A stretch of 59,778 bases of DNA from a virus. Lineage: Duplodnaviria; Caudoviricetes. Numbering within the stretch: the first letter of the stretch is position 1; every line of letters starts with the position of its first letter. Below the pieces are notes generated by a model, which had not been told where the DNA came from, made no database searches, and saw nothing but the letters and a program-made list of their open reading frames with translations. Both the position numbers and the translations under genes were made by a program. The stretch spans positions 1-59,778 of IMG/VR virus record IMGVR_UViG_3300021197_001267; one strand, written 5' to 3'. Below are positions 4,848 to 59,778 of the stretch, one piece after another.

Positions 4848-4921
4848 GCCCTTGTAGCTCAGTTGGATAGAGCACCCGCCTTCTAAGCGGGCGGTCACAG
4901 GTTCGAATCCTGTCGGGGGTA
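4848..4921 (+). tRNA. tRNA-Arg (anticodon TCT)
   Basis: Cloverleaf: acceptor GCCCTTG/CGGGGGT, D arm GCTC-AGTTGGATA-GAGC, anticodon arm CCCGC-CTTCTAA-GCGGG, T arm ACAGG-TTCGAAT-CCTGT; CCA not encoded. Confidence 0.93.
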
Positions 4922-4923
4922 CT

Positions 4924-11398: not shown

Positions 11399-12396
11399 GA
11401 AAGCTAATTCCTTTTCTGATTCCACTGCTCAGCTTTGGGCAGTGTGACATGGAGATTGTTGGGTTCAACCCCATCTCTACTGACTTAACTATCGCAGTCA
11501 ACGGTGCGCAGTGTGGTGCACCAGCAGACAGCATCGGTGAATTTATCTTGGCCCTTACGTTCAACCCACCCCTAGACGATAATCCTTTCCCTTGTTTCTA
11601 CGATAACGGTTGGGCACTACTCAACTTCCCCTTGGACTTCCCTGGGTTTGAGATAGGTCAAGGTCCTGACAACATCTTACAGGCAGGTGATACCATCACC
11701 TTTAACCTACTTGATACACCATGGGCTGGCAGTGGGGCTGCTCCTTGTTGGATTGACATCTTTCAGAGCGGTTCCTACTACGAGGAATGCTTGGTCATGA
11801 ACGTGTTTCAAATAAATGACAGCGACAACATAACTGGAGAGCCAGGACTTGGAGGATTCCCGTACCCCGACGAAGACATCTTCAACAGCTGGATACAGTG
11901 GTCTCTGAATGGGGCCTGTGACCCACCACCCCCGCCCATTGTGTACGGATGCACTGACATGTTTGCATACAACTACAATGAGTTTGCAACACAGAGTGAT
12001 GGTGGATGTATCTATCAAGGATGCTTAGACCCAGACGCCTTGAACTACTGTGAAGAGTGCACGGTAGAGGGGGAGTGCCTGTACCTTCCTGAAGAAGGTG
12101 AGGACTGCAGCGACCCTCGTGTCTACACCCCAAATACCTTTACTCCTAACGGAGACACTCTTAACGACTACTGGAAGCCAGTGACTCGCAGTGAGTGCTG
12201 GTGGCGGTGGGAGTGCAGGGTCTACAACAGATGGGGTACGCTAGTGTGGGTTAGCTATGACCCTCAGGACAAGTGGCTTGGCAACAGGCTGGGTGCATTT
12301 GTACCTGATGGGGTGTACACCTGGACTATTAAAGCATCTACTTGGGAAAGCCAGAAGGTTATAGAGATGGCTGGAAACGTAACGGTCTTCCGTTAA
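11395..12396 (+). CDS. secreted protein with GCxDxxAxNY repeats and T9SS type B (gliding motility-associated, CHU_C) C-terminal domain
   Basis: Signal peptide ending SFG|Q; GCTDMFAYNY and GCLDPDALNY; PNTFTPNGDTLND, VYNRWG, PDGVYTW, GNVTVFR; ATGA-coupled to the protease. Confidence 0.88.
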   Translation: MRKLIPFLIPLLSFGQCDMEIVGFNPISTDLTIAVNGAQCGAPADSIGEFILALTFNPPLDDNPFPCFYDNGWALLNFPLDFPGFEIGQGPDNILQAGDTITFNLLDTPWAGSGAAPCWIDIFQSGSYYEECLVMNVFQINDSDNITGEPGLGGFPYPDEDIFNSWIQWSLNGACDPPPPPIVYGCTDMFAYNYNEFATQSDGGCIYQGCLDPDALNYCEECTVEGECLYLPEEGEDCSDPRVYTPNTFTPNGDTLNDYWKPVTRSECWWRWECRVYNRWGTLVWVSYDPQDKWLGNRLGAFVPDGVYTWTIKASTWESQKVIEMAGNVTVFR

Positions 12397-13481: not shown

Positions 13482-13941
13482 CGTAATCAATGTATGTGAT
13501 AGTTACTTCCTCACCTTTGTCCAGAGCCTCTGCAATCCTTGGGTACACATCGAAGTAAGCTTGCGTGCTCCTGCCAATAAAGCCATTGCTGCTCTTGACA
13601 TTGGACTCCTGAGTTTCCCCAATGAGAAGGCAACCAGCAGTGTGCTCATCAGTATTCCCACAATGAATAAGTATGTACTCAAAAGAAGGTACGTCAAGAA
13701 CCCAGAGCATGCCTTTGTGAATATCCTGAAAACGATGGGCATACCTGCTGTGAAAGCCGCCCACTGTTCGTAGGCCAACTCGATACGTTCCAGAGGGGAC
13801 ACGAGTTTCGCCATCCACCTTTTCATTTCTTTCCTCATCTTCTAGTGTGTAACACAGGAACTTCCTGCCGTTTGTTGTGTCAAATAAAATGCCTGAGGTC
13901 GAGTCCTCTTGGCTACTGATTCTTAAAACTTCTAGTTTCAT
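13405..13941 (-). CDS. putative endolysin, DUF5675 family
   Basis: CYTLE, TRVPSGTY, ILIHCGNT..HTAGCLLIG. Confidence 0.75.
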   Translation of the reverse strand: MKLEVLRISSQEDSTSGILFDTTNGRKFLCYTLEDEERNEKVDGETRVPSGTYRVGLRTVGGFHSRYAHRFQDIHKGMLWVLDVPSFEYILIHCGNTDEHTAGCLLIGETQESNVKSSNGFIGRSTQAYFDVYPRIAEALDKGEEVTITYIDYDGEEEKKDKGHKARPVAKDRRTRSS

Positions 13942-16900
13942 TCTGTTAGATTGTAGTACATGCTCTCTTCAAGGGTGCCGCTACGCATGCCTGCCATGTA
14001 GATGTCCGCAAGGTTTTTGAACTCCTTGAACTCATCAGCAGACATAGCATTCTTTCTCTTGTTGATGATAGAGAAGTAATCCTTTGCGTCGCCAGCATTC
14101 ATAAAGATACTTCTGATATCTCTAATATGAGTCGAGTATCCATCCATCTTCCTCAAGCTAATTTCAATAGCCGCATCCTTAGCCCCCTTCTTAAATTTAG
14201 AAGCAGCCTTTTCTGCATCGTATGGTGAGTAGTTAAGTTGCTCTTGAAGGATGCGTTGGAATCCCTCTACCCCTGTATCCTCACCTAGAACTTGCATGAG
14301 TTCTTGGTTGTTGGATAGCATAGCCTTGGAAATCATTTCGTAACCAGCAAGCTCTTCTTCTGAGCGCAATGACCGCTCCCTCGGTAGGTCATCCATGCGG
14401 CGAGCGAGGATGTCAATCTCTTTGGATGAGAACCCAGACATCTGCCCCATCGCAAGCATGAACTTCATGGCAAAGAACATATCCATTTGCTCCTTATCCT
14501 CTGGCCTCACAAAGTATTCTCTGCCTGTAGAAGAGTAGACCTTGTTGCCATCTTCCATTAGGTTCTTCAGGGTGTTCCCTGCGTCGGTGACAAACTCCCC
14601 ATATGGCCCCATGCCCACCTTAAGCAAACCACTTGCAGACAACTCGGGGTTGCTGTTGTATGTGGGTATTGTTGCCGAGGTGTTCTTCCAGCGCTCATAC
14701 CTTTCATCATAACTCTCACCCTCCAAGAATCCTGGCACACCATCCATTCCTTCTGAAAGGGGGAATAGCATGTACTTGTTAGTCATCTCTTTTACCACGT
14801 CCTCCAAATAACCAATAGGAGGGAGTGGATTCATGTCTGCTAACACACTGCCAACGATATCCAACAGCTTACTGTCCTTGTACTTTGACTCCTCTTCATC
14901 GTCCTCTACAAATAGGGATGCGATAGCTGGGATTAAGACCTTACCGATAGCGTGGAATGCAGACAGCTCTGCAAGGTGTCCAGCCATAGCAATCGCACCC
15001 TCCCGTCTTGTCTTAGAGTCATCCCGCCTTCCTCGAAGGTCAAGCTTATTGAAGTCAGAGTAGATGCTTCGCTTCTTGTTTACAGCAAATCTTGCAAAAG
15101 GAAGGACAATGTTTCTGACGAAGTCGACTAAAGGCCCCATGGCCCCAGAGGTATCCTTGTAAATATCTGCTGCTTGGCGTGGCGTAGATGCCGCCTGGTC
15201 CTTAGTTACCATAGAGTCTGCATAGCTAAGCGCATCAAGGTCTGGTCGAGCTGCTTGCTCATCCCAGTTAATGTCGTCAAAGCTATCAGCCAGTCCCTCC
15301 GAGAGGAGGTAGTCTCCATAGAATGTAAACCACGACGCTACGGCAGCCACTTTGTCAGTAGACTTTAGGTTCTGTAGTGATAGGTCTTGAAGTTTGTCTC
15401 TTGTCCTAACAAACCAGCTAGTCTCTGTATCAATAGAACCAGTGTATGGGTCAATGTTTCCCGCTTCATAATCTCTAGAAAAAACTGGGGAGTTCTGAAG
15501 TAGCTTGTACCTTCCGTTTGCTTCAAGGGCAAGCTTAGAGTCAGTGAGCAATCCGTTCCTTAAAGCAAATGCGAAGAGCTCACCTACAGTTTGAATCATA
15601 TACGGGATAGACTGAACGGGATTCTTCGTGTTGGCCATCGTACTGATGAGCACGGTACTTTGCTTGAGTGTCTGAGTAAGTACACCGCCAAAGGCCTTCA
15701 CGATTACGGCGTTCTTAATTGTTTTAATAGGGTTTCTAAAAGTCTTACCCCCATACGTAAACCTAGCCTGAAAAACAGGAGGCGCACTTGCAGAATCTTG
15801 CGTGATGTAGTTCATCAACTTTGTGTGCAGCTGATTCTTTGTGCCGTCATCAGGAATGAGCTTGGCTAACTCCTCGCTTGAGAATACAGATTGAAGAGAC
15901 ATCACCTCACCCACAGTGTTTGATAGAATAGTATTTTCTCTGAGCGTTCGCTCGTTAATACTAGTAAAGTTGAGACCAAGGATATTCCCCGTGCCAGTAA
16001 TGCTCTTTGGGTTTCTCTCAAATGAGGAGCCTGCTGTTTTCTTAGCATTAGAAAGCGAGCTACTACGCATGCTGTCCATAATGGCCTGCCTCATCTGCAA
16101 TCCCTCATCAACAGCTTCGTTCTTTACCTTCACCTTAACGCTGAATGGCGTGTAGTTATTCTCTCTCGTGAGGTTCTTCCCGAGGTATCGCTCAACATAG
16201 TTCGCAAACGAATCTTCAAGCGTAGAGTGTACCCCAGCCATGAAGTCAACCATCTGAACAAGGTCAGGTCTTTCTGTCTGCACCTTGGCCAGTAGGTCTG
16301 GCAGGTTCTTCTCTGAGAACAGATACTCAAACGCTGCCTCCATCTCAGCTAAATCTTTGTCTGAGTAAATTTCACGCTGCTCCCTGTAGTGGTCGATACT
16401 GCGCCGCGTTGCATCTCTTAATGCGAGATACCACTCTGCCTCGTTTTGACCAGGTGCTCCCTCTTCAAGGACGGGCATCTGCCTAGCCATGGAGAACAGC
16501 TGCATAATAGCGTTATCCAATACTGTCTTGACACTCCCGCCCTCACCCTCAATACGGTCTATCTCCTCTGTTATGGCTTCGGCGGTCATGGCGTGAATCA
16601 TATCAGCCTTCGCAAAGGCTCTCTCCATGTCAGCAAATCCAATCAACCTTCGGATTTTTGAAATCGTTTTGTTGTCCGTCTTAAAGACCAACCTCAGGAA
16701 GGAGTCAGCTGTATCGAGTAGGGAAAGGATAGGCCTGCTCCCCGCACTTACACCCTTGTTAGTAAGCTGTTCTTCAATGCCCTTGGCCAACTCGATTCGA
16801 CCTCGCACGCGAGCAGCTAGATAACCCAGCCCCATGACTGAGTCGTTCATCAAGTAATCGTCAAGCTTAAACTCTAGGTTCGCTAGGTGAATCTTGTCAA

Positions 16901-19900
16901 GCTTCATCAGCCTATTGATTAGGTCCGAAGCATTGAATTGGTCAAGGCTATACACACCAAGAATCTCAGCAATATGACTGTCTTCAAGAAGCTTCTCTAG
17001 GTTGAAGGCAATCTGCGGCAGCAAAGCATCTCTTATGATTGCATCCTTAGACTGCTCCTCCAGGAGCGCTTTGTTCTCAGCGAGTTGCTCCAGCACATAC
17101 TCTACGTCAGCAGGGTTAGCGGGGTCAAGAGACAGCTCAGGGTTGTCTTCGATGAAGCTAAGGATAGCTCTCCTGGTGGCGCTAACTTTGCGAAGCTTTG
17201 CCGCCTTAACAAGTGCTTCGTATTCGTTCTCAAAAGAAGTTCCGTTCTTCTCGGCAGCCGCCTTAGCCTTAGCCACCATCACCGCGTTACGTCCTATCTC
17301 TTCGAGGGCTATGAACTTATCGGCAAGAGACATGAGGGCTTCGACTGACCTCCTCGCAGGCACCTGAGCCACTACCCTCTCTTCCTCTTTACTGAATACT
17401 GTCTTCACCTTTGACACAGAACTCACGGCGGAGTTGAGTGTGTTGATGAAGTCCTGTATATCCGTGGGCGACAGCAGAGATGCGTTGATTCCAGACAGTC
17501 TCCTTAGTACCCTGTCGTAGGAAGCAACAGACTTAAGCGCCTCTCCCTTCTTGCGCTTCTTGGCTGCACCTCTTAGTCTCTTTTGGAGCTTGCGTGCCGC
17601 ACTAATAGAAGCCAAGTAGTTTCTCATGGCTTCTTTGGCATCCTGCTTATCGAAGATATCAATCAGCTTCTCAACAAACGTATCCATAACCTCGGCCTCC
17701 CCCTCCTTCTGAATCCTCTTGGCAGAAGACTTGTGTGCTTGCCTAACAATCTTAAGGAGTCTCTGAATGTCCTTGTTGCCAAAGGGCTGCTGACCCCTGC
17801 CCTTCATCCTTTCATCCACAAGCTTGATAGCAAAGGACAAGAACTCCTCTACGGTTTTAGACTTGTTCTTAAGCTGGTCGAGTTCTTTCTTAAGAGCCTT
17901 GGCCTCTGTGCTAAGCTCTCTGTTTCTTTTACCGAGGGTCTCCTGAGCCTCCCTGCTTGCCATCTTTTTTCCTGCAGTTCGCCCCTCCTTGTAAGCCTTG
18001 GCATTGGCATACATCGCCTCTGCGTTTTCTTTGCTCATGCCACTTGCAATAAGTAGCTCCATCACCTCCTTCTTTTTTCTGTTCCATAGCTCGCTTTTAG
18101 AGGGCGTAATAATAAGCTTTCCACGCTTAGTCACACGCGCTCCTGGAGTAGGAGTTGAAGGGTCAACCATGTCGGCTATGAGCTTCATCAAGTTACCCTG
18201 AGCCTTACCTCTATTGATAATTGACTCAGACTTGTCCATCGCCAAAACGTCTCTAGTGATAGTGTCAATAGGGACGGGTGTCTTAACAGTCATCCTACCC
18301 CACGTAGCCTGACCCATCCCCCCCATCATTTCAAAGGCGTTAGGAGTTATGAGTTTGCGCTCCCCCTTGCTGTTGGTGTACATGTCACCTATCTCTAGAC
18401 CACGGTTTACTGGGTTGGTACCCCTGGTAACAAGCGTGCCAGGAGCAGAGCGCATAGCCTTAAAGACAATAGTCTTTGGTGTCGGAGCGTTGGGGTCTAC
18501 ATTGACTAGCTTAAGTGGGTATGAGGCTGTTGGGTTGGGGTCTTTCTCAAGCCTAACCTCAGATGAAACCTCGATAGCACCATATATATTATTAACCTCC
18601 CCCCCCTGAAGAATCTTCTCTTGAAAGAAGTCATAGAAAAAGTTCTTAAGAGTAGAACCAAATTGACTTGCCTTAGGTCTAAACCCAAAGATTCTTTCGT
18701 AGGATTCTATGAGTCTTTTCTTTTCTGCAGCACTGTCCTTGGACTTTACAGCTACTGCCTTCCCCAGGTTTGTTGCAAACTTATCTACAAACTCACGTCT
18801 CTGCTCGAACGTAGACCTATATGGGGATGCGAACTCTACGAAGAAACGCTCGAACAAATCCTCCATTTTGCCAGCCATAGAGCTGAGCTTATTTGTCCCC
18901 TTCTTGAGTGGGTTTGGCTCCTTGCCATCCTTTACCCTAGCCTCGTTTCTTTTTATCTGAGTAGTAATAGACAGTCTCTCAGTCTCGGCGACAGTATCCT
19001 TGAGCACCTTCTTGAGCTCCGTCTTGGTCAGTACATTCTGATTGACAAGCTCAAAGCCAAGGGAAGCCATAGACATCACACCATTGGTGGAGCTTTTGTG
19101 CTTCTCCCTTCCCCCGCTGATGAGTAGGAGGTAGGCCTTGCCGTCGGGTGAAGTCTTGAGCAGTTCATTAAGTTCATTGGCCATGTTGTTACCAGCGCTC
19201 TCGCCAGCCACAGCCCACACGTCACCTGTATTGGCAGAATAGAACAGCCCGCCTCCATTATTCACCAGCACTCTGTCGTCAACAGACACCGAGCCAACCA
19301 TCATGTTGTCTGGTGAGTGCGAGAGGACAGGTCTTCCCTCCAATATAGACATATCTTCTTGACGGACCACCCCCGACTTGAGCCAGTCCTCCATCTGTGT
19401 GGTGCTTGCTGCGTAGTTCAGGTCAAAGATTCCAATCTTCTGTGGCTTAACCAAAGACACTGGGTCTCCAACAAGAGCGCCTGGGCGCTGGAACTTAATC
19501 TTCTGTCCACTCACCCTACTCTTAGCCTCAAAGCGAGGGTCAGACGCAGAGACTTTAACAGCATCCTTGGCGAGCACAAGCGCTCCCACTTGAATAATCT
19601 CAGAGGCCTCAGCTAGTGGTCGGCCATCACGCTTGTCATAGAACCAGCTGTGGCGGAACGGATTCATCCCCACCTGTACCCATCCCTCCATCTTGCCCAG
19701 CTCCTTGTAGTCAGAGTTGTACTCGCTACCCTTCATGATGTCGACAGCACGCTGTCTCACCTGCTCGGGTGACTCGTTCTTGAAGTCACCAAACATTCTC
19801 GCAATAGTCTGCTTGCCCTTACCCCTTGCAATGTTGAGGGCGGCCATTGGCGTGGAGTCAAAGGTCGCGTTCGTAATCACCGCTGTCTGTCCATACCCTA

Positions 19901-22900
19901 CAGCCTTGCCGCCAAGGAACGGTGCCCTTGCTTCAGCTCTCTTGCCTTGGTGCACTGAGACAACCCACGTGTCGTAGGTGTCGTATGCTGGGATGTCTAG
20001 TCTCAACCCAACGTAGTACCCGTCAGCAATCTCTTTGTTAACTCCAATGATACCCTTGGCTACCTTGTCAGAGGTTAGCGCCGATGCCACGTCCATTACT
20101 GTTGGGACCTCAGGCACTTCTTCAAAAGGCTTGATAGGCATGTTCTCCCGAACAGCTGACACATAATCCTCTTGAGTAATTTCTCCGAGCTCGTACTTAT
20201 TAAGGACATTGAGCACTACAGAGTTACGTGTTTGTCTTTGAGACTCGGGCAACTTCATCTCCGCTCTACGTTCCTCCATCTGCTGAGCATTGATACCTGC
20301 AGCCTGCTCAAAAGAAACCTCTGCGTTTTCTGATAGCGAGAGGTCGGGCAGGGCTTGAGCCTTAGGCTTTCTTGCTCTTGCTGCCGTGGCATCGTATGCC
20401 ACCATGTAGTCATCAAACCTTTGACCCTCTCCTTTGGCGCCTTCACCTTTGACAAAGAACACTACATCTGGCTCGTCGAGCAACGGTGAGTTCTCTGCAT
20501 CCCAACCATCTGGTGCAAACTCCCTGTTAAATGCTGTGCGTGCATAGGGTTTGTACCCCAACCCAATGTAGATATCCTCTAGCTTGGTGGCAAAAGCATC
20601 GAAGAAAATCTCAACACCGTTCTCTGCAGCCCATGCTTCCATGCGCTTGAACAAAGGTTTTGTAATCCGCTTAAATCTTGTGTCTGGATTCTTGAAGATG
20701 CCACCTACGTAACCGTCCTTGGTGATGTATCCACCAGCACCGTAGTCTGCTGTCATGAAGATTTCCCCTCCGTCGTCGATGATTTGTTGTACATCGGATT
20801 CTGAAAGCTGAGTCACTTGCAAACCAATGTTAATGCCACGCTCCTCCATCATCTTCATCGCTCGGTCCATAGACCTGGCAAAATAGTTTACCCCCTGAGG
20901 GTCAGAGGCCGTGATGATGTCTCTGTCTGCTGCGTCTGCTGTTGGTCTGATAGGCTCTGACTTCTGCCTTGTCGCCTCTCCGCTATACTCACCCTCGTGC
21001 ACGTAAGTTTCCTCATACGTCCACCCTCTCTCCCGCTCCATGAACTTGATGAAGTTGTTGAGGTGACGCTCGTTCTTGAATACCCTCTTCACTGGGTGCT
21101 TGGCCTTACCACTAAGGCTTACGCTGAACACGACGGTTGCAAATATCTCCCCGCCCTCTGCCTCCATAGCCTGCGCCTTGGCTTCGTCGAAGCCATCCTC
21201 TGCTTCGTCATCCATCATAACTCCAGCACGCATAGCAATGCCTGCATAGTTGGCTCGGATAACAGCTTCGTTCAGCTTTCTCTGTCCCTCAAGCCTACGA
21301 CCTTCAGAGAACTCTTGAGTCATCTGTTGGATGGCGGACACGACGTTGTCAATCTTTGCGTCAGGAATACCCTTGACTCCAATGCGTCCTAGGTGTGGGG
21401 CGAGGAACTCCATGAACTGCCTGACCACACTCTTCTGGATGTCGATAGATACGTTGCCTGCGGTGATGTCAGCAAGAAGTTCTGTAAGGAACTCGTCAGC
21501 AACCTGCACCTTGTCCTGTTCTGTCAGAGATTTGTCATCAAGTGAGGACGTGAGGTTGCCTCGGCCGTCTCCGTAACTTGTTAAGAACTGTGAATACCTC
21601 TTAGCCAGGTTGTCAGGCAGAGCCTGGAACAACTTCTTCGCCAACCCAACAGCAGCCTTGGTCCCGATGGTCTGCAGCACGAAGTCATGATACCCCTCGT
21701 GATATGCTGTTGTCTCAAGCAAGCCTGGCAAGAACATCTTAATCTGACCCGACCCAGTCCACATCCCACGTCCCGCAGCCTCGATAGCCTCCTCCCTCGT
21801 GAGGCCAGCATCCTGCATGAGGTCTTCGATGTAAGTATCGTAGTCTCGATACATGTCAACAGCCACGTCACCCAAAGAGGACAAGCCCTTGACTACGTTA
21901 ACAGCGTTTTGCATGCCCCTCACGATGCGTTCGCCAGTAGTTACTGCCTTGGTCTTACCCTCTCCATCCACAACGGTGTGGGGTGAGACATCGTACTTGG
22001 TCAATCCTTGAATGATTTGAGCAATAGGACCTAGGTTGTCTGCCGTTACAGTAACCTTGCCCCTTCCCTCTGCAAACAGTCCGCCATAGTTGCGTCTCTT
22101 CTTGCCAGCTTTCCGTCCCTCTCTAGCCAAGATGCGGGACTCAAGCTTACCGTCTGTCTGAAGCATAGAGTCCATCTCTCCCTCAATGTTACCGCGCTCG
22201 GCCATAAGCTCCCGAACCTCCTTGGTAATCTTTCGTCTTGTATCAGAGTCCGCACGCGTGTACTGTTCTGCAAGAACCTCCGCTCTATTGTGGATATCCA
22301 CGAGTCTTTGGTAAGTCTCTGGCTTAGTCTCTGCCAGATACTCCATAACCTGTTGTCTTCTATCCGACAGCTTGGTGTAGGCATCGACAGCGTCAATAAT
22401 CCTGCGGCCAATCGTGGCTCTTTCTCTTTTAGATTCTGCCTGAGAGAATTGACCCTTAAGCTCTTCAATCTTAGCCATGGTTCTGATTAACCCAAGACTT
22501 TTGCTCGCAACGGTCCTGGCCACTGTACCTGCAGGTGAAAGCGTCCCACCCATAGCAATACCTGCCAGCGCTCCTTCTTTTGTCTGAGCCCAGAAGTCAT
22601 CATACTTCCACTCTACCGCCTCGCCACCAGCACGCATGGCGTTAATTCTAGATGTGTACTGCCACCCTGCAGTAACCCCCTCAGTAATCCCCTCTTCAAC
22701 AGCGCCAAGGCCAGCGCCCATAAGAAGGCCTGTTGTCCAGCTCTTTAAGGTTTGCTCACCAGCATCGGTCATTAAAGACTTGATGATGGCACCTCCAACA
22801 CTTTTACCAGCAAAAATCTGTGCTCCCACTGCGGCAGGAAGACCTTCTGCGATACCGCTACTCGTTACAAACCCAAGCTTCTGTGCGTCATTTAAGTTTT

Positions 22901-24182
22901 GAAACCATTCGGTGTCTCTGTTCTCCGAGTAGACTGAAGCACCACCGAGTATAGATGTGACAGAACCTACGGCTCGGGGGTTGCCTCTTGATACAGCACC
23001 TGTAACCATAGCGGCGCCCATTAGGGGAAGGGATGCACCAAGCATGCCTAGGCCGTCACTCATGAATCCTGGAATGTCAAGGTCAAGGAGCTTTTCCTCA
23101 AGGCCTTTGCTGGAAACAGCCATATCCTTACCAATATCCCTGATGCTCTGCTGCCGTGCAGCCTGGTCTTCATCATTGCCGCCAAGAGCGTTCTCTACTG
23201 GAGTTGCAATACCATCCCACATCCTCAATGTTGCCTGCCTAAATCCAGGGGCGAAAACATCTGTTACTCCAAGCCATCCCTGACCCGACTCGTTGACGTA
23301 ACCCTCCCCCGTTAGGTCCGTAGAGATATCATAATTTCTGTATAGATTCTGCTCGATAGACCTACGCTCATCAAGAGAAAGGTCCCTACCCATTTGTGAT
23401 TTGAACTTAGCGCTTGCGGTAGGCTCAATCTGTTGGTTGATGTAGGAGAAAGCTTCGTTTCCAGCCCGCTCCTTTTCCATCCTTACAACCTCGTCTTTGA
23501 ATTGACGGGCTTGACCCTCATAATCTAGGCTCTCGTCTACCTCAAAGTTGGGCGCAAAAAATCCTCTGTCTCTTCCAGAATACAAACGACCAGCGTCAAA
23601 TCCCTTAAGTGATTCGTAATCGTTTTGAGGAGTATCATTAAATCCTTTTGATAGCTCAATGTAACCCTCGTTTACGTCGTCATTCATCAAAGAGCCAATA
23701 CCATCAATGACAGATTGGCGCTCTAACTCTAGCTGTTCTGAGGAAAGACTATCTAGTCTAGATGCGTCAGCCTGCATACCGCTAGACTGATAGTACTTAG
23801 ACAGGTCAAAGTTTTGATTGATGTAATCCATCCGTTCAGACTCGTAAGCCTGCCCGTAATTGTACACCAACTGCGCATCAGCCCCAGGGATTTGCTGTCC
23901 CCCGAAGTCATACGTCTGGTATGGGTCAAATGTTACTGGCGTAGAAGCCGAAGCTCCACTGTCGTCCTCGTCCTGCTGAGCTGGAGTCGCCAACCCTGAA
24001 GAAGAATCCGTAAAATCCACCTCCGAAACTGGCTCCAAGGCTGAAGTTTCGTCTTTTTTTTTTGGGTCCTCGACTGGCTGTGCCGCTTGGTACCCATCAA
24101 TCATTGCTTGCAGCTCGGCTTTTGAGGCGCCAGCCTCTGCAGCCGCGTAGTAGCGTGCAAGGAACTGCTCTTTTGTCTCCAT
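13938..24182 (-). CDS. giant (3414 aa) internal virion/ejection polyvalent protein with zincin (HExxH) and GNAT-like domains
   Basis: After two other ejection-type genes; Gly/Ala-rich hydrophobic segment; AYHEGYH then ADEFLTE; FDAF...Y...GY..YAR..FN.EFAP.GWD...PDVVF; long helical C-terminus. Confidence 0.8.
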   Translation of the reverse strand: METKEQFLARYYAAAEAGASKAELQAMIDGYQAAQPVEDPKKKDETSALEPVSEVDFTDSSSGLATPAQQDEDDSGASASTPVTFDPYQTYDFGGQQIPGADAQLVYNYGQAYESERMDYINQNFDLSKYYQSSGMQADASRLDSLSSEQLELERQSVIDGIGSLMNDDVNEGYIELSKGFNDTPQNDYESLKGFDAGRLYSGRDRGFFAPNFEVDESLDYEGQARQFKDEVVRMEKERAGNEAFSYINQQIEPTASAKFKSQMGRDLSLDERRSIEQNLYRNYDISTDLTGEGYVNESGQGWLGVTDVFAPGFRQATLRMWDGIATPVENALGGNDEDQAARQQSIRDIGKDMAVSSKGLEEKLLDLDIPGFMSDGLGMLGASLPLMGAAMVTGAVSRGNPRAVGSVTSILGGASVYSENRDTEWFQNLNDAQKLGFVTSSGIAEGLPAAVGAQIFAGKSVGGAIIKSLMTDAGEQTLKSWTTGLLMGAGLGAVEEGITEGVTAGWQYTSRINAMRAGGEAVEWKYDDFWAQTKEGALAGIAMGGTLSPAGTVARTVASKSLGLIRTMAKIEELKGQFSQAESKRERATIGRRIIDAVDAYTKLSDRRQQVMEYLAETKPETYQRLVDIHNRAEVLAEQYTRADSDTRRKITKEVRELMAERGNIEGEMDSMLQTDGKLESRILAREGRKAGKKRRNYGGLFAEGRGKVTVTADNLGPIAQIIQGLTKYDVSPHTVVDGEGKTKAVTTGERIVRGMQNAVNVVKGLSSLGDVAVDMYRDYDTYIEDLMQDAGLTREEAIEAAGRGMWTGSGQIKMFLPGLLETTAYHEGYHDFVLQTIGTKAAVGLAKKLFQALPDNLAKRYSQFLTSYGDGRGNLTSSLDDKSLTEQDKVQVADEFLTELLADITAGNVSIDIQKSVVRQFMEFLAPHLGRIGVKGIPDAKIDNVVSAIQQMTQEFSEGRRLEGQRKLNEAVIRANYAGIAMRAGVMMDDEAEDGFDEAKAQAMEAEGGEIFATVVFSVSLSGKAKHPVKRVFKNERHLNNFIKFMERERGWTYEETYVHEGEYSGEATRQKSEPIRPTADAADRDIITASDPQGVNYFARSMDRAMKMMEERGINIGLQVTQLSESDVQQIIDDGGEIFMTADYGAGGYITKDGYVGGIFKNPDTRFKRITKPLFKRMEAWAAENGVEIFFDAFATKLEDIYIGLGYKPYARTAFNREFAPDGWDAENSPLLDEPDVVFFVKGEGAKGEGQRFDDYMVAYDATAARARKPKAQALPDLSLSENAEVSFEQAAGINAQQMEERRAEMKLPESQRQTRNSVVLNVLNKYELGEITQEDYVSAVRENMPIKPFEEVPEVPTVMDVASALTSDKVAKGIIGVNKEIADGYYVGLRLDIPAYDTYDTWVVSVHQGKRAEARAPFLGGKAVGYGQTAVITNATFDSTPMAALNIARGKGKQTIARMFGDFKNESPEQVRQRAVDIMKGSEYNSDYKELGKMEGWVQVGMNPFRHSWFYDKRDGRPLAEASEIIQVGALVLAKDAVKVSASDPRFEAKSRVSGQKIKFQRPGALVGDPVSLVKPQKIGIFDLNYAASTTQMEDWLKSGVVRQEDMSILEGRPVLSHSPDNMMVGSVSVDDRVLVNNGGGLFYSANTGDVWAVAGESAGNNMANELNELLKTSPDGKAYLLLISGGREKHKSSTNGVMSMASLGFELVNQNVLTKTELKKVLKDTVAETERLSITTQIKRNEARVKDGKEPNPLKKGTNKLSSMAGKMEDLFERFFVEFASPYRSTFEQRREFVDKFATNLGKAVAVKSKDSAAEKKRLIESYERIFGFRPKASQFGSTLKNFFYDFFQEKILQGGEVNNIYGAIEVSSEVRLEKDPNPTASYPLKLVNVDPNAPTPKTIVFKAMRSAPGTLVTRGTNPVNRGLEIGDMYTNSKGERKLITPNAFEMMGGMGQATWGRMTVKTPVPIDTITRDVLAMDKSESIINRGKAQGNLMKLIADMVDPSTPTPGARVTKRGKLIITPSKSELWNRKKKEVMELLIASGMSKENAEAMYANAKAYKEGRTAGKKMASREAQETLGKRNRELSTEAKALKKELDQLKNKSKTVEEFLSFAIKLVDERMKGRGQQPFGNKDIQRLLKIVRQAHKSSAKRIQKEGEAEVMDTFVEKLIDIFDKQDAKEAMRNYLASISAARKLQKRLRGAAKKRKKGEALKSVASYDRVLRRLSGINASLLSPTDIQDFINTLNSAVSSVSKVKTVFSKEEERVVAQVPARRSVEALMSLADKFIALEEIGRNAVMVAKAKAAAEKNGTSFENEYEALVKAAKLRKVSATRRAILSFIEDNPELSLDPANPADVEYVLEQLAENKALLEEQSKDAIIRDALLPQIAFNLEKLLEDSHIAEILGVYSLDQFNASDLINRLMKLDKIHLANLEFKLDDYLMNDSVMGLGYLAARVRGRIELAKGIEEQLTNKGVSAGSRPILSLLDTADSFLRLVFKTDNKTISKIRRLIGFADMERAFAKADMIHAMTAEAITEEIDRIEGEGGSVKTVLDNAIMQLFSMARQMPVLEEGAPGQNEAEWYLALRDATRRSIDHYREQREIYSDKDLAEMEAAFEYLFSEKNLPDLLAKVQTERPDLVQMVDFMAGVHSTLEDSFANYVERYLGKNLTRENNYTPFSVKVKVKNEAVDEGLQMRQAIMDSMRSSSLSNAKKTAGSSFERNPKSITGTGNILGLNFTSINERTLRENTILSNTVGEVMSLQSVFSSEELAKLIPDDGTKNQLHTKLMNYITQDSASAPPVFQARFTYGGKTFRNPIKTIKNAVIVKAFGGVLTQTLKQSTVLISTMANTKNPVQSIPYMIQTVGELFAFALRNGLLTDSKLALEANGRYKLLQNSPVFSRDYEAGNIDPYTGSIDTETSWFVRTRDKLQDLSLQNLKSTDKVAAVASWFTFYGDYLLSEGLADSFDDINWDEQAARPDLDALSYADSMVTKDQAASTPRQAADIYKDTSGAMGPLVDFVRNIVLPFARFAVNKKRSIYSDFNKLDLRGRRDDSKTRREGAIAMAGHLAELSAFHAIGKVLIPAIASLFVEDDEEESKYKDSKLLDIVGSVLADMNPLPPIGYLEDVVKEMTNKYMLFPLSEGMDGVPGFLEGESYDERYERWKNTSATIPTYNSNPELSASGLLKVGMGPYGEFVTDAGNTLKNLMEDGNKVYSSTGREYFVRPEDKEQMDMFFAMKFMLAMGQMSGFSSKEIDILARRMDDLPRERSLRSEEELAGYEMISKAMLSNNQELMQVLGEDTGVEGFQRILQEQLNYSPYDAEKAASKFKKGAKDAAIEISLRKMDGYSTHIRDIRSIFMNAGDAKDYFSIINKRKNAMSADEFKEFKNLADIYMAGMRSGTLEESMYYNLTE

Positions 24183-56104: not shown

Positions 56105-56258
56105 ACTCCTCTAACGAAGGAGGTGGCAGCTTATTGCTCAGCTTATCTAGAGCCCTGGCCATAGCCCTCCTCCTTCCACGCGCTGTGTGCTGCCCCCTAG
56201 TGTTATTAGTGGCTTCTTGCAACAGCTGAATCATCTCGTCTGTTAATTGCATGTGCAT
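56097..56258 (-). CDS. small hypothetical protein (53 aa, not in ORF track)
   Basis: MHMQLTDEMIQLLQEA...PPPSLEEYD*; ATGACTAA overlap with the next gene. Confidence 0.45.
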   Translation of the reverse strand: MHMQLTDEMIQLLQEATNNTRGQHTARGRRRAMARALDKLSNKLPPPSLEEYD

Positions 56259-56371
56259 AGCTGTCCCTTGATACTTTTTTAAGAGAGGACCCTAAGCTGC
56301 CTGTATCTCACAAACAGTCTGACCGAGGTGAGGACCCATCAGGTCCGTAACCTCAAGACGTCCTCTCAAGG

Positions 56372-56408
56372 ATGTAGCGAAGGTACTACATTTTTTTTTC
56401 AAAGTCAA
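56372..56408 (-). promoter_or_regulatory. putative first promoter of the - strand (late) arm
   Basis: TTG (56406-56408), 20 nt, TACCTTCG (56378-56385); the -7 box is flanked by the inverted repeat ATGTAG/CTACAT. Confidence 0.5.
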
Positions 56409-56917
56409 GTAGGGTGGGTAACACCATAACCCAGCGCGGAATTATCTTTCGAGATACATATAGTGTAATACCATAGATAGAAAGGTGACAGATAGAAGAG
56501 CATAACACATATCGAGGCTGATAATAATTATGCGAAGGTATGTGAAAATAGGCCAGACATACGCACCTAGGGGATTATACATATACAGCAGTAGCACCGA
56601 TGTCAATCGGAAACGGAATCCTGAACCCCAGCCCCTCGACGTTTTCCCCTTTGGGAATCCAGTTTTGGCATTTGACTTTTGGCTCTCCCCAGTCCAAGCA
56701 AGACAGACCAAGATGGACCACAGGAGATGAGACACACAGACCACAGGCACAATCCCTTCCCCAATCGTTCATGCTCCATGGGGGAACCCACACATGGGAC
56801 ATTGTGGTGCGTTAACTTTTGTTTGCATATAGGTCCATACTAAATCGAAGACGAGACTCGTATAGGTATCAGAAGGCGGGAGCTGATTCCTAGCCACAAA
56901 CCCTTAACTCACTGATA

Positions 56918-57271
56918 ATGAACAACATGAAAAGATACGCTTGTGATTGCATCAAGCAAGCAGACGATTCAGCGGAACGTTTGCGCAACATGGCCGACGT
57001 GATTGGCAACGAACAACGCTACGAGGATGGCGTTTGCACCACCGCTGACGTTCAACGAATGATGAAGAACGGCATCAAGAAAACGGCAACCGACATGCAG
57101 AACTTGATTCGCACAATGGCCGACCAGTTGGATGCCGAGAGAGCCGAGGTTGAGCGCATGAAGCGTCTGTACGGGATGGCTCGCAAGGACATCCAAGACT
57201 TGAAGAACCTGCCATCTCCTTCGGGCTATGACCGAAACATCCATCGTATGCAGTCTGACGGCTCATACTAA
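56918..57271 (+). CDS. first early gene, coiled-coil hypothetical protein
   Basis: 117 aa ORF after the strand-switch region. Confidence 0.7.
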   Translation: MNNMKRYACDCIKQADDSAERLRNMADVIGNEQRYEDGVCTTADVQRMMKNGIKKTATDMQNLIRTMADQLDAERAEVERMKRLYGMARKDIQDLKNLPSPSGYDRNIHRMQSDGSY

Positions 57272-57311
57272 AACGATGACGACAACGTTATACTATCAAA
57301 CCCCAAGCACA

Positions 57312-57461
57312 ATGACAAGTTTCAAAATTCACAGGCAGATGCGCGTAGACCTTGACCGAGGGGTGCGCACAGAGGTAGCCGCAAGACGTTGCGTGATTCA
57401 GTTGTTCAAGCATGGACACCTCCTCCCCATGAGCTACCAAGGCCCAACCAAGGCACACTGA
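57312..57461 (+). CDS. small hypothetical protein (49 aa)
   Basis: Start moved to the ATG in leader AAACCCCAAGCACAATGA (57298-57315, repeated at 57510-57527). Confidence 0.6.
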   Translation: MTSFKIHRQMRVDLDRGVRTEVAARRCVIQLFKHGHLLPMSYQGPTKAH

Positions 57462-57501
57462 AGAGTCCTAATTGGACGAAACGCCGTGAGGCGTCTGTGT
57501 C
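57452..57501 (+). ncRNA. type I hammerhead ribozyme
   Basis: Stem I GGCACA/TGTGTC; core CTGAAGA (57458-57464); stem II GTCC-TAATT-GGAC; GAAA; stem III ACGCC-GTGA-GGCGT; GTC cleavage triplet ending at 57495. Confidence 0.9.
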
Positions 57502-57523
57502 AAACTCTTAAACCCCAAGCACA

Positions 57524-57718
57524 ATGAGCATGCTCCCGAAAATCAGCACCGAGTTCAGCGGCACGAACGCGGACTACAACATCCAAACGATGGGCGACAC
57601 CACCCACGTTGAAGTCAATGGATTCTGTTACCACATCAATCAAATCAAAACGCCCGAGTTGAAGTCTGCCTGCGAGACGTTGCTCCAAGCATCAAGGGTC
57701 CTCGGCCAAACCATCTGA
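57524..57718 (+). CDS. small early hypothetical protein
   Basis: 64 aa, 28 nt after the predicted ribozyme cut. Confidence 0.65.
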   Translation: MSMLPKISTEFSGTNADYNIQTMGDTTHVEVNGFCYHINQIKTPELKSACETLLQASRVLGQTI

Positions 57719-57721
57719 ACC

Positions 57722-57931
57722 ATGAAGTACACAATGCAAGCCCAACTACTGCAACGCAAGAACCTCGCCTACATTCGGATGAAGGACCTTCGTGAGCAAG
57801 CCCGCATCGCACGAATCGAGTTTGACTTGGCCGCCAAGGATTTGGAGGAGCACAAGATTCAGTTGACCATCAAACGCATGGCGGAGAGGGAGACTCACTT
57901 CGGCATCCACATCGACACCTCAAACCTCTGA
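57722..57931 (+). CDS. small coiled-coil hypothetical protein
   Basis: 69 aa. Confidence 0.6.
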   Translation: MKYTMQAQLLQRKNLAYIRMKDLREQARIARIEFDLAAKDLEEHKIQLTIKRMAERETHFGIHIDTSNL

Positions 57932-57935
57932 AGCG

Positions 57936-58058
57936 ATGACAAGCATGGACATCTTCGCCCACCTGTTGGGTATGTACGCGGGATGGAGTTTGGTGCTCTC
58001 CTGCATACGAATTGGACTGAACATGACGTTAGATTACCTAGAAACACAATACACATGA
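57936..58058 (+). CDS. 40 aa putative membrane peptide (not in ORF track)
   Basis: MTSMDIFAHLLGMYAGWSLVLSCIRIGLNMTLDYLETQYT*; ATGA overlap with the next gene. Confidence 0.4.
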   Translation: MTSMDIFAHLLGMYAGWSLVLSCIRIGLNMTLDYLETQYT

Positions 58059-58222
58059 ACGTATACCGAATGACTTACATCCGTGGTCGAGACCGAGATG
58101 ATTGGAGAGAGATTGACTTCATCGAAAACAGCATGGAAGGAGCGCGTCAAATGGCTCGTGCTCTCGTGCCCCACGACCACAGAGTTCGCAAGGTTGAATT
58201 TGTCAAAACAATAGAGCAATGA
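58055..58222 (+). CDS. small hypothetical protein (55 aa)
   Basis: Start moved to the ATG after the ACACAATACAC leader. Confidence 0.6.
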   Translation: MNVYRMTYIRGRDRDDWREIDFIENSMEGARQMARALVPHDHRVRKVEFVKTIEQ

Positions 58223-59115
58223 AGAAGAAGAGAAACGTCTACGAGGAAGTCACGGCACGGGTTGTCGATGGCATCAAGGCAAAGGGTATGCAATGGTTCC
58301 GACCATGGGAAGGTGGTGGTGGGTTGCACCCCATCAACCGAGCCACAGGCAAGGGATACAAGGGGATGAACGTCCTGTTCCTGTTCGCTGAAGCGGAAGC
58401 CAAGGGATATGAGCACAACGAATGGTTGACCTACAAGCAAGCTGTTGGCCTGAAGGGTCAGGTGCGCAAAGGTGAGAAGTCTACCAACGTGGTATTCTGG
58501 AGCATCAGCATTCAGGACGAGGACAAGAAGTGGTACAGGAAGGCGTCAGAAGTACCTAGCGGCAAGAAGTACGAGAAGTTCTTCTCTCTGCGGACGTACA
58601 ACGTCTTCAATGTGGCGCAATGCGATGGCATCGAACCTCGAAGAGAGGTTGTGGAGGCCAAGGGTGATACAACCCCCATCGAGAGCGCAGAAGCGGTTTA
58701 TGGTGGTTTTGTGGGCAAGCCTACTCTGAAGCAGGGAGGTTCACGAGCCTACTACAAACCTGCGGCCCACCATGTCCAAATGCCCAAGATGGAGACCTTC
58801 GTCTCTCCTGACGACTACTACAAGGTCCTGTTCCACGAGTTGACGCACAGCACAGGCCACAAGAGCCTACTCAATCGTGACACCTTGGTGCAGATGAACT
58901 CGTTTGGCGACGAGGAGTACTCCAAGGAGGAATTGGTGGCGGAGATTGGTGCGCAGTTCCTCTCGGGCATCGTGGGCATCAAGCCCAAGTCTGACTCCAT
59001 GAACTCACAGGCCTACATCAATGGGTGGTTGAGCAAGATTGGCAAGGAACCGAAGTTGGTCGTGAGCGCGGCAACGCAAGCAATGAAAGCTGTCGATTGC
59101 ATCCTCGGAGATTAA
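58219..59115 (+). CDS. ardC: ArdC-like antirestriction protein (ssDNA-binding N-domain + zincin-like domain)
   Basis: W.RPW, YKGMN, WLTYKQA...GQVRKGEKS, YNVFNVAQ, AYY.P, FHELTHSTGH, YSKEELVAE. Confidence 0.9.
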   Translation: MKKKRNVYEEVTARVVDGIKAKGMQWFRPWEGGGGLHPINRATGKGYKGMNVLFLFAEAEAKGYEHNEWLTYKQAVGLKGQVRKGEKSTNVVFWSISIQDEDKKWYRKASEVPSGKKYEKFFSLRTYNVFNVAQCDGIEPRREVVEAKGDTTPIESAEAVYGGFVGKPTLKQGGSRAYYKPAAHHVQMPKMETFVSPDDYYKVLFHELTHSTGHKSLLNRDTLVQMNSFGDEEYSKEELVAEIGAQFLSGIVGIKPKSDSMNSQAYINGWLSKIGKEPKLVVSAATQAMKAVDCILGD

Positions 59116-59194
59116 CATTCGTTAACAACGGGGAGGACAATAAGGTCTTCCCCACCAACGTTCTAATACTAGAAACCCTTAAACACAATACACA
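59112..59194 (+). promoter_or_regulatory. repeated early promoter-like motif plus 37 nt repeat
   Basis: TTAACATTCGTT (59112-59123), GACAAT (59136-59141), CGTT (59159-59162); 59158-59194 identical to 799-835. Confidence 0.65.
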
Positions 59195-59445
59195 TGATTG
59201 TCGAAAACCTAAACTTCTGCTTCCGACCAAACGTAGGAGACAGAGGGCAAGTCATCATCCCGCTCTCTCCAACCCTTGGAGTCTCCATGGTTGCGATGGA
59301 GGATGGACCTTCAGAAATTGCCGCTGTCGTTCTAGACGGGAAGGGCAAGGTCAACTGCGTCCTCTCTGACAGCAAGCCATTCTTCACCATCGGGTGCATC
59401 TTGGACTTCATCAAGCAAGCAAACAATGAATACAACACATTATGA
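59194..59445 (+). CDS. small early hypothetical protein
   Basis: 83 aa directly after the conserved leader. Confidence 0.65.
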   Translation: MIVENLNFCFRPNVGDRGQVIIPLSPTLGVSMVAMEDGPSEIAAVVLDGKGKVNCVLSDSKPFFTIGCILDFIKQANNEYNTL

Positions 59446-59588
59446 CACAAGGCCAAAGACTTGACAATCGCATGAAGAACTGCGGTAGCTTCGAACTTGC
59501 GCTCATCAGGGCGTGGTTCAAGGCAGACAAAAGCAACAAGGACCGCTTACAAGAGGCCTTCAAGAATACACAATTTGATTTGACATGA
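59442..59588 (+). CDS. small conserved phage protein (48 aa, not in ORF track)
   Basis: GSF..AL..AW..AD..N..RL..AF motif; ATGA-coupled on both sides. Confidence 0.65.
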   Translation: MTQGQRLDNRMKNCGSFELALIRAWFKADKSNKDRLQEAFKNTQFDLT

Positions 59589-59770
59589 CGAAGAAACAAC
59601 TGCTTATCGAACGTATCAGCCATGTGCTGAACGACACAGGAGCGTACAAGGAGTTAACCAAGCTCCTCGTTGACCGCGAAGAGGTGCTACTGGACACCGA
59701 CATGGATAGCCTTGCCGATGAGCTTGAAGAATTTATTTTCAACTGGACACAAATCGAAGACAATGACTAA
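59585..59770 (+). CDS. small acidic hypothetical protein
   Basis: 61 aa, coupled. Confidence 0.65.
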   Translation: MTKKQLLIERISHVLNDTGAYKELTKLLVDREEVLLDTDMDSLADELEEFIFNWTQIEDND

Positions 59771-59778
59771 AACAGAAA
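59763..59778 (+). CDS. 5' part of the junction-spanning gene (continues at 1-140)
   Basis: ATGACTAAAACAGAAA continues in frame into TCGCAGAT... Confidence 0.7.

Follow-up and report, generated by a model that had tools for sequence, protein, structure and literature searches.

Results

A hammerhead ribozyme lies between two small genes of a phage gene block

The stretch of DNA analysed here (the window) is a complete IMG/VR virus record of 59,778 nt, with a CheckV completeness of 100% and no terminal repeat. Its plus-strand gene block runs from 56918 across the record ends to about 12396 and contains small orphan genes, ardC, Erf, an exonuclease and a primase/helicase (PHROG assignments), while the minus-strand block, from 56258 down to about 12400, encodes the terminase, the portal, virion proteins and an ORF of 3,414 aa. 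A type I hammerhead ribozyme is located in the plus-strand block, in the sense orientation between two co-directional small genes (57312-57461 and 57524-57718), and an ardC-like gene begins 724 nt downstream of the predicted cut, with three small genes intervening. A position within an operon and upstream of ardC had been given in the first-pass annotation, and the ArdcN and MPTase-PolyVal domains found with Pfam bear out the identity of that gene. The coordinates of all features are collected in Table 1.

Table 1. Features of the ribozyme locus (positions in the window)
Feature	Position	Strand	Basis or remarks
Upstream small ORF, 49 aa, orphan	57312..57461	+	Stop TGA 57459-57461 = core U4-G5-A6
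Complete type I hammerhead with both conserved flanking A (A57451, A57502)	57451..57502	+	Sequence, RF00163, models R1/R2
Stem I, 5' strand GGCACA	57452..57457	+	Pairs with 57496-57501, one G-U pair
Core C3-A9, CUGAAGA	57458..57464	+	Sequence; C, U, G, A, G, A invariant in family alignment A1
Stem II GUCC/GGAC with 5-nt loop UAAUU	57465..57477	+	Strands 57465-57468/57474-57477, loop 57469-57473
Core G12 A13 A14	57478..57480	+	Sequence; invariant in A1
Stem III ACGCC/GGCGU, including A15.1-U16.1	57481..57494	+	Strands 57481-57485/57490-57494; GUGA tetraloop 57486-57489
Predicted cleavage site after C17 (C57495)	57495..57496	+	Position from hammerhead consensus
Stem I, 3' strand UGUGUC	57496..57501	+	Sequence, family covariation
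28-nt leader of predicted 3' product	57496..57523	+	A/C-rich, without Shine-Dalgarno; ATG at 57524
Downstream small gene, 64 aa	57524..57718	+	Homologues in relatives
ardC-like anti-restriction gene	58219..59115	+	PHROG 7245; Pfam ArdcN plus MPTase-PolyVal

No relatives were found for the upstream ORF, and its standing as a real gene rests on a shared leader and on analogy with the ribozyme family described below. The leader is part of an exact 16-nt repeat, AACCCCAAGCACAATG, present on the plus strand at 57299-57314 and again at 57511-57526, where it supplies leader and start codon to 57312 and 57524, respectively. A related AACCCCAAGCACAATG-like leader also stands before a different gene at locus L154 of another phage. 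The recurrence of such conserved leaders suggests that they may act as recombination linkers. Terminator-like sites were not detected on the plus strand between 56918 and 59115, and co-transcription of the genes that flank the ribozyme is plausible.

The ORF at 11362-12396 encodes a CHU_C domain of type IX secretion (Pfam). This secretion system is not known outside Bacteroidota; the host is therefore probably a marine member of the Bacteroidota. The CHU_C-domain ORF is overlapped on the same (plus) strand by an M43 metallopeptidase-like ORF at 9512-11398, and a host-secreted protease carried by a phage (9512-12396) is unusual cargo that points to Bacteroidota as well. The Bacteroidota-type -7 promoter motif TANNTTTG was matched 35 times against 30.5 expected; because it showed no overall enrichment, it was not used as host evidence. 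A Shine-Dalgarno sequence was absent from every start region examined in this phage. When positions 56900-58300 were compared with GenBank phages by blastn at a distant setting, no match was returned.

Several other features of the genome were recorded. A tRNA-Arg with anticodon TCT is encoded at 4848-4922 (plus strand), within the replication-side gene block. Comparison with PHROG, Pfam and PDB sequences gave no match for the 3,414-aa ORF of the virion gene block (13938-24182, minus strand); in length it is reminiscent of the virion RNA polymerases known from N4-like and crAss-like phages. The divergent gene blocks are separated by a region of 660 nt (56259-56917) that has no convincing ORFs and shows about 67-73% identity to relatives. 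Positions 56552-56794 within it showed no unusual fold on either strand (z = +0.98 and +0.85). One 243-nt contig maps to the same positions, and none covers the ribozyme; it comes from a run that is labelled metatranscriptomic but is probably DNA, and that is known as contigs only and is thus uninformative on RNA ends or expression.

The ribozyme is complete and is recognized best by a model of its own family

All core nucleotides and three stems of a type I hammerhead can be read directly from 57452-57501, as had been annotated at first pass. Every core base is intact, including A57481-U57494 and C57495, as are all 15 base pairs; with stems II and III capped by loops and stem I left open to both RNA ends, the topology is that of type I. 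The three-stem junction is also the fold of lowest predicted energy for 57440-57515, although the stability of this fold is ordinary (z = -1.28, with 27 of 200 shuffled sequences at least as stable). In longer contexts, stems II and III were predicted to pair with probabilities of 0.8-0.98 and stem I with probabilities of 0.01-0.19, values obtained with thermodynamic models that take no account of tertiary contacts. The segment UGUGU (57496-57500), which would be freed by cleavage, can also pair with GCACA (57519-57523) just before the AUG of 57524. This pairing is probably incidental, because it is absent in most of the family members listed.

The core and topology are identical to those of the Rfam type I model (RF00163, Hammerhead_1), to which the element aligns over its full length (model positions 1-45) with a score of 25.3 bits. 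The corresponding E values were 3.2e-4 in a search of 251 nt, 0.0045 in 3.6 kb and 1.8e-5 per genome, and none of 14 control genomes contained a match. The score does not reach the Rfam gathering score of 34 bits, an operational threshold of one model that does not define the class of ribozyme, and at gathering thresholds a tRNA was the only report in the window. In the RF00163 alignment, 8 nt fall in stem III where 2 are expected. The hammerhead was the only Rfam match at E <= 1 in 56200-59778, and other RNA families gave no match at E <= 1 in 1-1400.

A covariance model (R2) was built from 117 other phage copies, with the sequence of the window left out. R2 returned the element as its sole match, with 73.1 bits and an E value of 1.8e-19, a typical score for the family, whose members range over 49-76 bits. 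A second model (R1) scored the element at 73.3 bits, and with filters off its next site in the 59.8 kb had 11.6 bits and an E value of 0.92. Since R2 had a single match and the next-best R1 site was so weak, the genome contains exactly one copy; neither R1 with filters off nor R2 found a second. Chance resemblance to the hammerhead consensus could be argued from the sub-threshold Rfam score and from a fold that is no stabler than shuffled sequences; however, the R2 E value, the gap to the next-best site, the clean control genomes and the covariation across the family (see below) make it vanishingly improbable. Loci L154, L156, L157 and L158 of related phages gave no Rfam match at E <= 0.1, and a hammerhead copy that is present at L156 was itself missed by RF00163 at this cut-off. 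By these scores, the compact phage subfamily is poorly captured by the Rfam type I model.

The ribozyme belongs to a large family with covarying stems

A strict pattern search recovered 25 viral contigs with hammerheads whose stem I sequences are very different yet complementary. A looser pattern, in which 16 core bases and their spacing were fixed and pairing was not required, matched at least 127 stretches in viral contigs. Among the matches listed, all three stems are formed in 123 of 139 unique 54-mers although no pairing filter had been applied, and stem I is exactly 6 bp long in 112 of the 139. Covariation was then assessed in an alignment of 118 of the matches listed, the window included, which had been pre-filtered for pairing; because the sequences were selected in this way, the 99.8% of paired positions in the alignment is a circular figure. 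Within these 118 pre-filtered sequences from the matches listed, 12 of the 15 pairs changed on both sides, and these changes were distributed over all three stems; all six pairs of stem I varied on both sides, and the catalytic core columns were invariant. The covariation score was 0.757 compared with 0.168 after shuffling (none of 500 shuffles reached the observed value), and sliding the pairing partners gave at most 0.077.

Features outside the stems are conserved too. Stem III loops are dominated by GNRA or UNCG, and loop II follows a conserved U-N-A-N-U pattern. In 106 flank-independent contexts, position -7 is A in 97% and -6 is G in 91%, +5 is C in 90% and +6 is A in 88%, and both flanks are poor in G. 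The flanking A-G...C-A bases and the loop II pattern are intact in the window. Two to four hammerhead copies were present in 13 of 25 six-kb phage loci (near-duplicate loci included), and in the multi-copy loci every hammerhead is wedged between small ORFs. At L025, L007, L012 and L011, for example, three to four compact type I hammerheads separate small ORFs of about 45-125 aa within one operon. At L004, two paralogues of the window gene 57983-58222 are separated by a hammerhead. Judged by its core, stems, loops and flanks, the hammerhead at 57451-57502 is typical of the large family to which it belongs in uncultured phages.

A loop II-stem I contact is implied by covariation

Natural hammerheads owe their speed to a tertiary contact of loop II with stem I. 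In the phage family, the last base of loop II (column 23) and the base that immediately follows stem I on its 3' side (column 52) vary together. Among the matches listed, the 118 sequences comprise 92 with U/A, 11 with A/U, 10 with G/A and 5 with other combinations, and the mutual information between the two columns is 0.53 bits. The window has U57473/A57502 and falls in the major U/A class. The 11 A/U members have varied stems, and in this class U52 can also pair with A1. Complementarity of loop II to the flanks, as a Watson-Crick pseudoknot would require, did not rise above permutation (mean best run 2.79 vs 2.76 on the 5' side and 2.60 vs 2.71 on the 3' side). Together with the conserved flanks, the covariation implies that loop II and stem I touch in the tertiary fold, with U57473 and A57502 as the predicted partners; this would fit a full-length, fast ribozyme better than a minimal one.

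A contact of this kind has precedent. Chi et al. 2008 (PMC2553840) describe a conserved AU pair of the Hoogsteen type, in which the A that ends the stem II loop contacts a U beside residue 1.6. The sTRSV and Schistosoma hammerheads have the same A/U identities as 11 of the 118 phage members, whereas the identities are swapped in the 92 members that include the window, with U in loop II and A on the stem I side. The phage family also differs from these two hammerheads in that its stem I is open after 6 bp and has neither a bulge nor a loop.

Upstream stop codons and downstream start codons keep close spacing to the ribozyme

The gene context of the family was surveyed in 128 instances, each unique over ±60 nt; because related phages contribute some of them, the instances are not all independent. 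In 123 of the 128, a sense ORF of 40 codons or more lies upstream, and 95 of these 123 ORFs end within 11 nt of the core start (the C of CUGA). Favoured positions of the stop were -9 (15 instances), -8 (11), -3 (21), +1 (15) and +11 (13). Position +1 corresponds to the core UGA, as in the window (15/123), and +11 lies in loop II; only 7 stops are found beyond the cut site. Downstream, an ORF starting with ATG begins within 90 nt in 117 of 128 instances. In the 106 flank-independent contexts, the distance from cut to ATG has a median of 26 nt (IQR 22-29), with 84 of 99 values within 17-36 nt. Open frames in the same contexts are more frequent on the sense than on the antisense strand, both upstream (83 vs 49) and downstream (101 vs 60). 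In the window, the TGA stop of ORF 57312-57461 does lie inside the CUGA core, and the spacing from the predicted cut to the next ATG is indeed the 28 nt noted at first pass, compared with the family median of 26. The family counts thus make both the stop-codon overlap and the 28-nt leader the norm of the family.

The first-pass annotation had also proposed that a ribosome terminating on the core could gate cleavage. In such a regulated switch, a ribosome at the end of the upstream ORF or on the core UGA would keep stem I and the core unfolded, and the extent of cutting would vary with the level of translation of that ORF. The location of the upstream stop codon in the core fits this proposal, as does the finding that 95 of 123 upstream ORFs end no more than 11 nt from the core start, so that in each case some of the element would be covered by the ribosome during termination; the same pattern is seen at L025, L007, L012 and L011. 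Regulated cleavage is, in addition, raised as a possibility for phage hammerheads by Perreault et al. (PMC3088659). However, the stops occur in all three frames (47, 42 and 34 of 123) and at no fewer than five preferred positions, the core UGA serves as stop in only 15 of 123, and the upstream ORF of the window is an orphan. No conserved alternative structure was found, since the pairing of 57496-57500 with 57519-57523 is absent from most of the family members listed, and folding would be unhindered once the ribosome leaves. Gating is accordingly held to be decidedly unlikely, and this part of the initial proposal was not supported. The even use of the stop frames argues that tight gene packing, and not selection for a device, brings the stop onto the core UGA; such an overlap would arise whenever an ORF reaches the element in the matching frame.

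The ribozyme is found at a mosaic junction and is absent from close relatives

Relatives of ArdC are encoded at seven loci. Four relatives (G001-G004) carry an ArdC that is 73-76% identical to that of the window, and a hammerhead is present only in G002 (locus L156). The L156 hammerhead is situated 955 nt upstream of ardC, has a 7-bp stem III and is flanked by different genes. Whole-record searches of G001, G003 and G004, which are 98-100% complete, recovered no hammerhead copy. By this distribution, the hammerhead is dispensable in the lineage; with three near-complete relatives that do without a copy, any benefit is therefore conditional, and the element is not essential to the early programme.

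Homology to the 57524 cassette begins directly 3' of the ribozyme, at 57502 in the comparison with L156 and at 57507 in the comparisons with L154/L155. According to these alignments, the ribozyme is placed exactly at a mosaic junction. In the relatives, the same cassette comes after ardC, and before it stand a hairpin, a conserved box GTTCTAAYACTAGAAAC and a similar A/C-rich leader. The relatives thus have a promoter-like module before the cassette, and the ribozyme fills a slot that is otherwise held by such a module.

This intergenic module recurs in these genomes as a composite. It consists of TTAACATTCGTTAAC, ACAATAAAC, a near-palindromic box GTTCTAATACTAGAAAC and a leader CCTTAAACACAATACACA, followed by ATG. 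Copies in the window are on the plus strand at 521-595, 776-838, 1229-1299 and 59109-59196 (near 558, 801, 1266 and 59160), and the module is also present at L154, L156, L157 and L158, with 3-5 copies per relative locus. A GGGGAGG...CCCC hairpin sometimes precedes it. The GTTCTAATACTAGAAAC module had no Rfam match. Covariation between the stem halves of the box is absent from the copies listed, as would be expected of a site bound by protein more than of an RNA hairpin. The module probably serves these phages as their own promoter or regulatory cassette and marks the boundaries of gene cassettes.

A further explanation is that the motif arrived with a recombined cassette and is neutral or inactive here. 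Its patchy distribution (among the window and G001-G004, only the window and G002 have a copy) and its location at the homology breakpoint are what such a passenger or relic would show. Decay, however, would leave defects in the core or the stems, and here the core, the 15 pairs, the flanks and loop II are all intact and the score of 73 bits is family-typical. A neutral or inactive remnant is thus very unlikely.

Discussion

Phage hammerheads are already well known, and the window adds a member to them and not a new kind of element. The study of Perreault et al. 2011 (PMC3088659) places hammerheads of phages and prophages beside genes and proposes that they process long phage transcripts. It reports cleavage during in vitro transcription of polycistronic fragments of about 2 kb for three tandem sets, those of Clostridium scindens, Azorhizobium caulinodans and A. 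tumefaciens, and states that the A. tumefaciens hammerheads flanking ardA cleave in E. coli too. In halovirus HF2, according to the same study, a 5' end was mapped within 3 nt of the hammerhead cut and 13 nt before an early start codon.

The element of the window is like the examples in that study in being intergenic, on the sense strand and between co-directional small genes, and in having an anti-restriction gene nearby, which is ardA in the published examples and ardC in the window. The cut that precedes an early start codon by a few nucleotides in haloviruses HF1/HF2, as described there, can likewise be likened to the arrangement at 57524. There are differences from what that source presents, however. 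Its clusters flank single genes or short blocks, whereas the window genome has one copy; ardC is not immediately downstream in the window; and many of its bacterial examples are type II hammerheads with a pseudoknot, whereas the window has a type I. The type I hammerheads in the 5' UTR of fungal RNA viruses (10.1101/2024.05.16.594327) also lie shortly upstream of a viral start codon; unlike the phage, that setting is eukaryotic and involves cap-independent translation.

A sense-strand hammerhead between co-directional genes, with no terminator-like site nearby, makes the processing of a polycistronic message the natural reading. We consider it quite likely that the ribozyme constitutively cuts such a message, giving the downstream part a 5'-OH end, uncoupling the two halves and insulating a shuffled cassette. 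This agrees with the first-pass proposal of mRNA processing that leaves a 5'-OH on the downstream part, while the description of the message as the earliest one of the phage did not find support. We infer that the cut is made in vivo, that the flanking genes are co-transcribed and that RNA stability and translation are affected.

Hammerhead cleavage after position 17 produces a 2',3'-cyclic phosphate and a 5'-OH end. In the proposed sequence of events, the ribozyme would be transcribed within the plus-strand early/replication-side operon, would fold once the 3' strand of stem I emerges, and would cut itself after C57495. The upstream fragment would comprise genes 56918-57271 and 57312-57461, would keep the stop codon of the latter, and would end in the compact structure of stems II and III with the 2',3'-cyclic phosphate. 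The downstream fragment would comprise 57524-57718, two further small genes and ardC, and would start at U57496 with a 5'-OH. Its leader of 28 nt would be unstructured and Shine-Dalgarno-less. Such a cut would uncouple the halves of the message and give the downstream cassette a defined leader that is independent of the upstream context, and the ribozyme may in this way serve as a natural insulator or punctuation mark.

Cleavage could conceivably do more than this and enable translation: in a host that does not use Shine-Dalgarno sequences, it may be needed for efficient initiation at 57524, which it would turn into a 5'-proximal gene. The absence of Shine-Dalgarno sequences at the start regions of this phage, the probable Bacteroidota host suggested by the CHU_C domain, and the narrow distance from cut to ATG in the family (median 26 nt) are compatible with such a role, and so is the position of the ribozyme in the slot of a promoter-like module that would likewise create a short leader. 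The fungal RNA virus preprint (10.1101/2024.05.16.594327) reports that cleavage by a type I hammerhead is essential for translation initiation in that system. However, a Shine-Dalgarno-like tetramer (by a loose definition) occurs in 43 of 93 family leaders, and the family is therefore not confined to hosts of this kind. Most internal genes of the phage have no ribozyme, and relatives express the same gene without one. The predicted mean unpaired probability of the start-codon region was 0.63-0.71 in cleaved and 0.49-0.82 in uncleaved RNA; accessibility is thus not raised by cleavage, and a simple unmasking role is unsupported. A requirement of cleavage for translation is, on balance, a minor possibility.

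A more elaborate version, in which the ribozyme would be a promoter surrogate in Shine-Dalgarno-less hosts, is unlikely. A cut at a fixed distance of about 26 nt before the ATG would then be required for ribosomes to load on an internal cistron, termination on the 5' half would time the cut, and a shuffled cassette would bring along its own start of expression and need no promoter. A full-text literature search found no account of what this compact type I subfamily does in phages, nor of any connection with Shine-Dalgarno-less hosts; the supplements of PMC3088659 may contain members of the subfamily.

Constitutive self-cleavage of a polycistronic message thus remains our preferred reading of the locus. 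The window adds a clean and easily testable example of a phage hammerhead, together with rules that apply across the family: a stem I of 6 bp, an upstream stop codon that abuts the element, a leader of about 26 nt, swapped A/U identities in the predicted tertiary contact, and a mosaic junction at a promoter-like slot. These rules give a more concrete form to an old question, the purpose of phage hammerheads, and they predict a role as insulator or punctuation.
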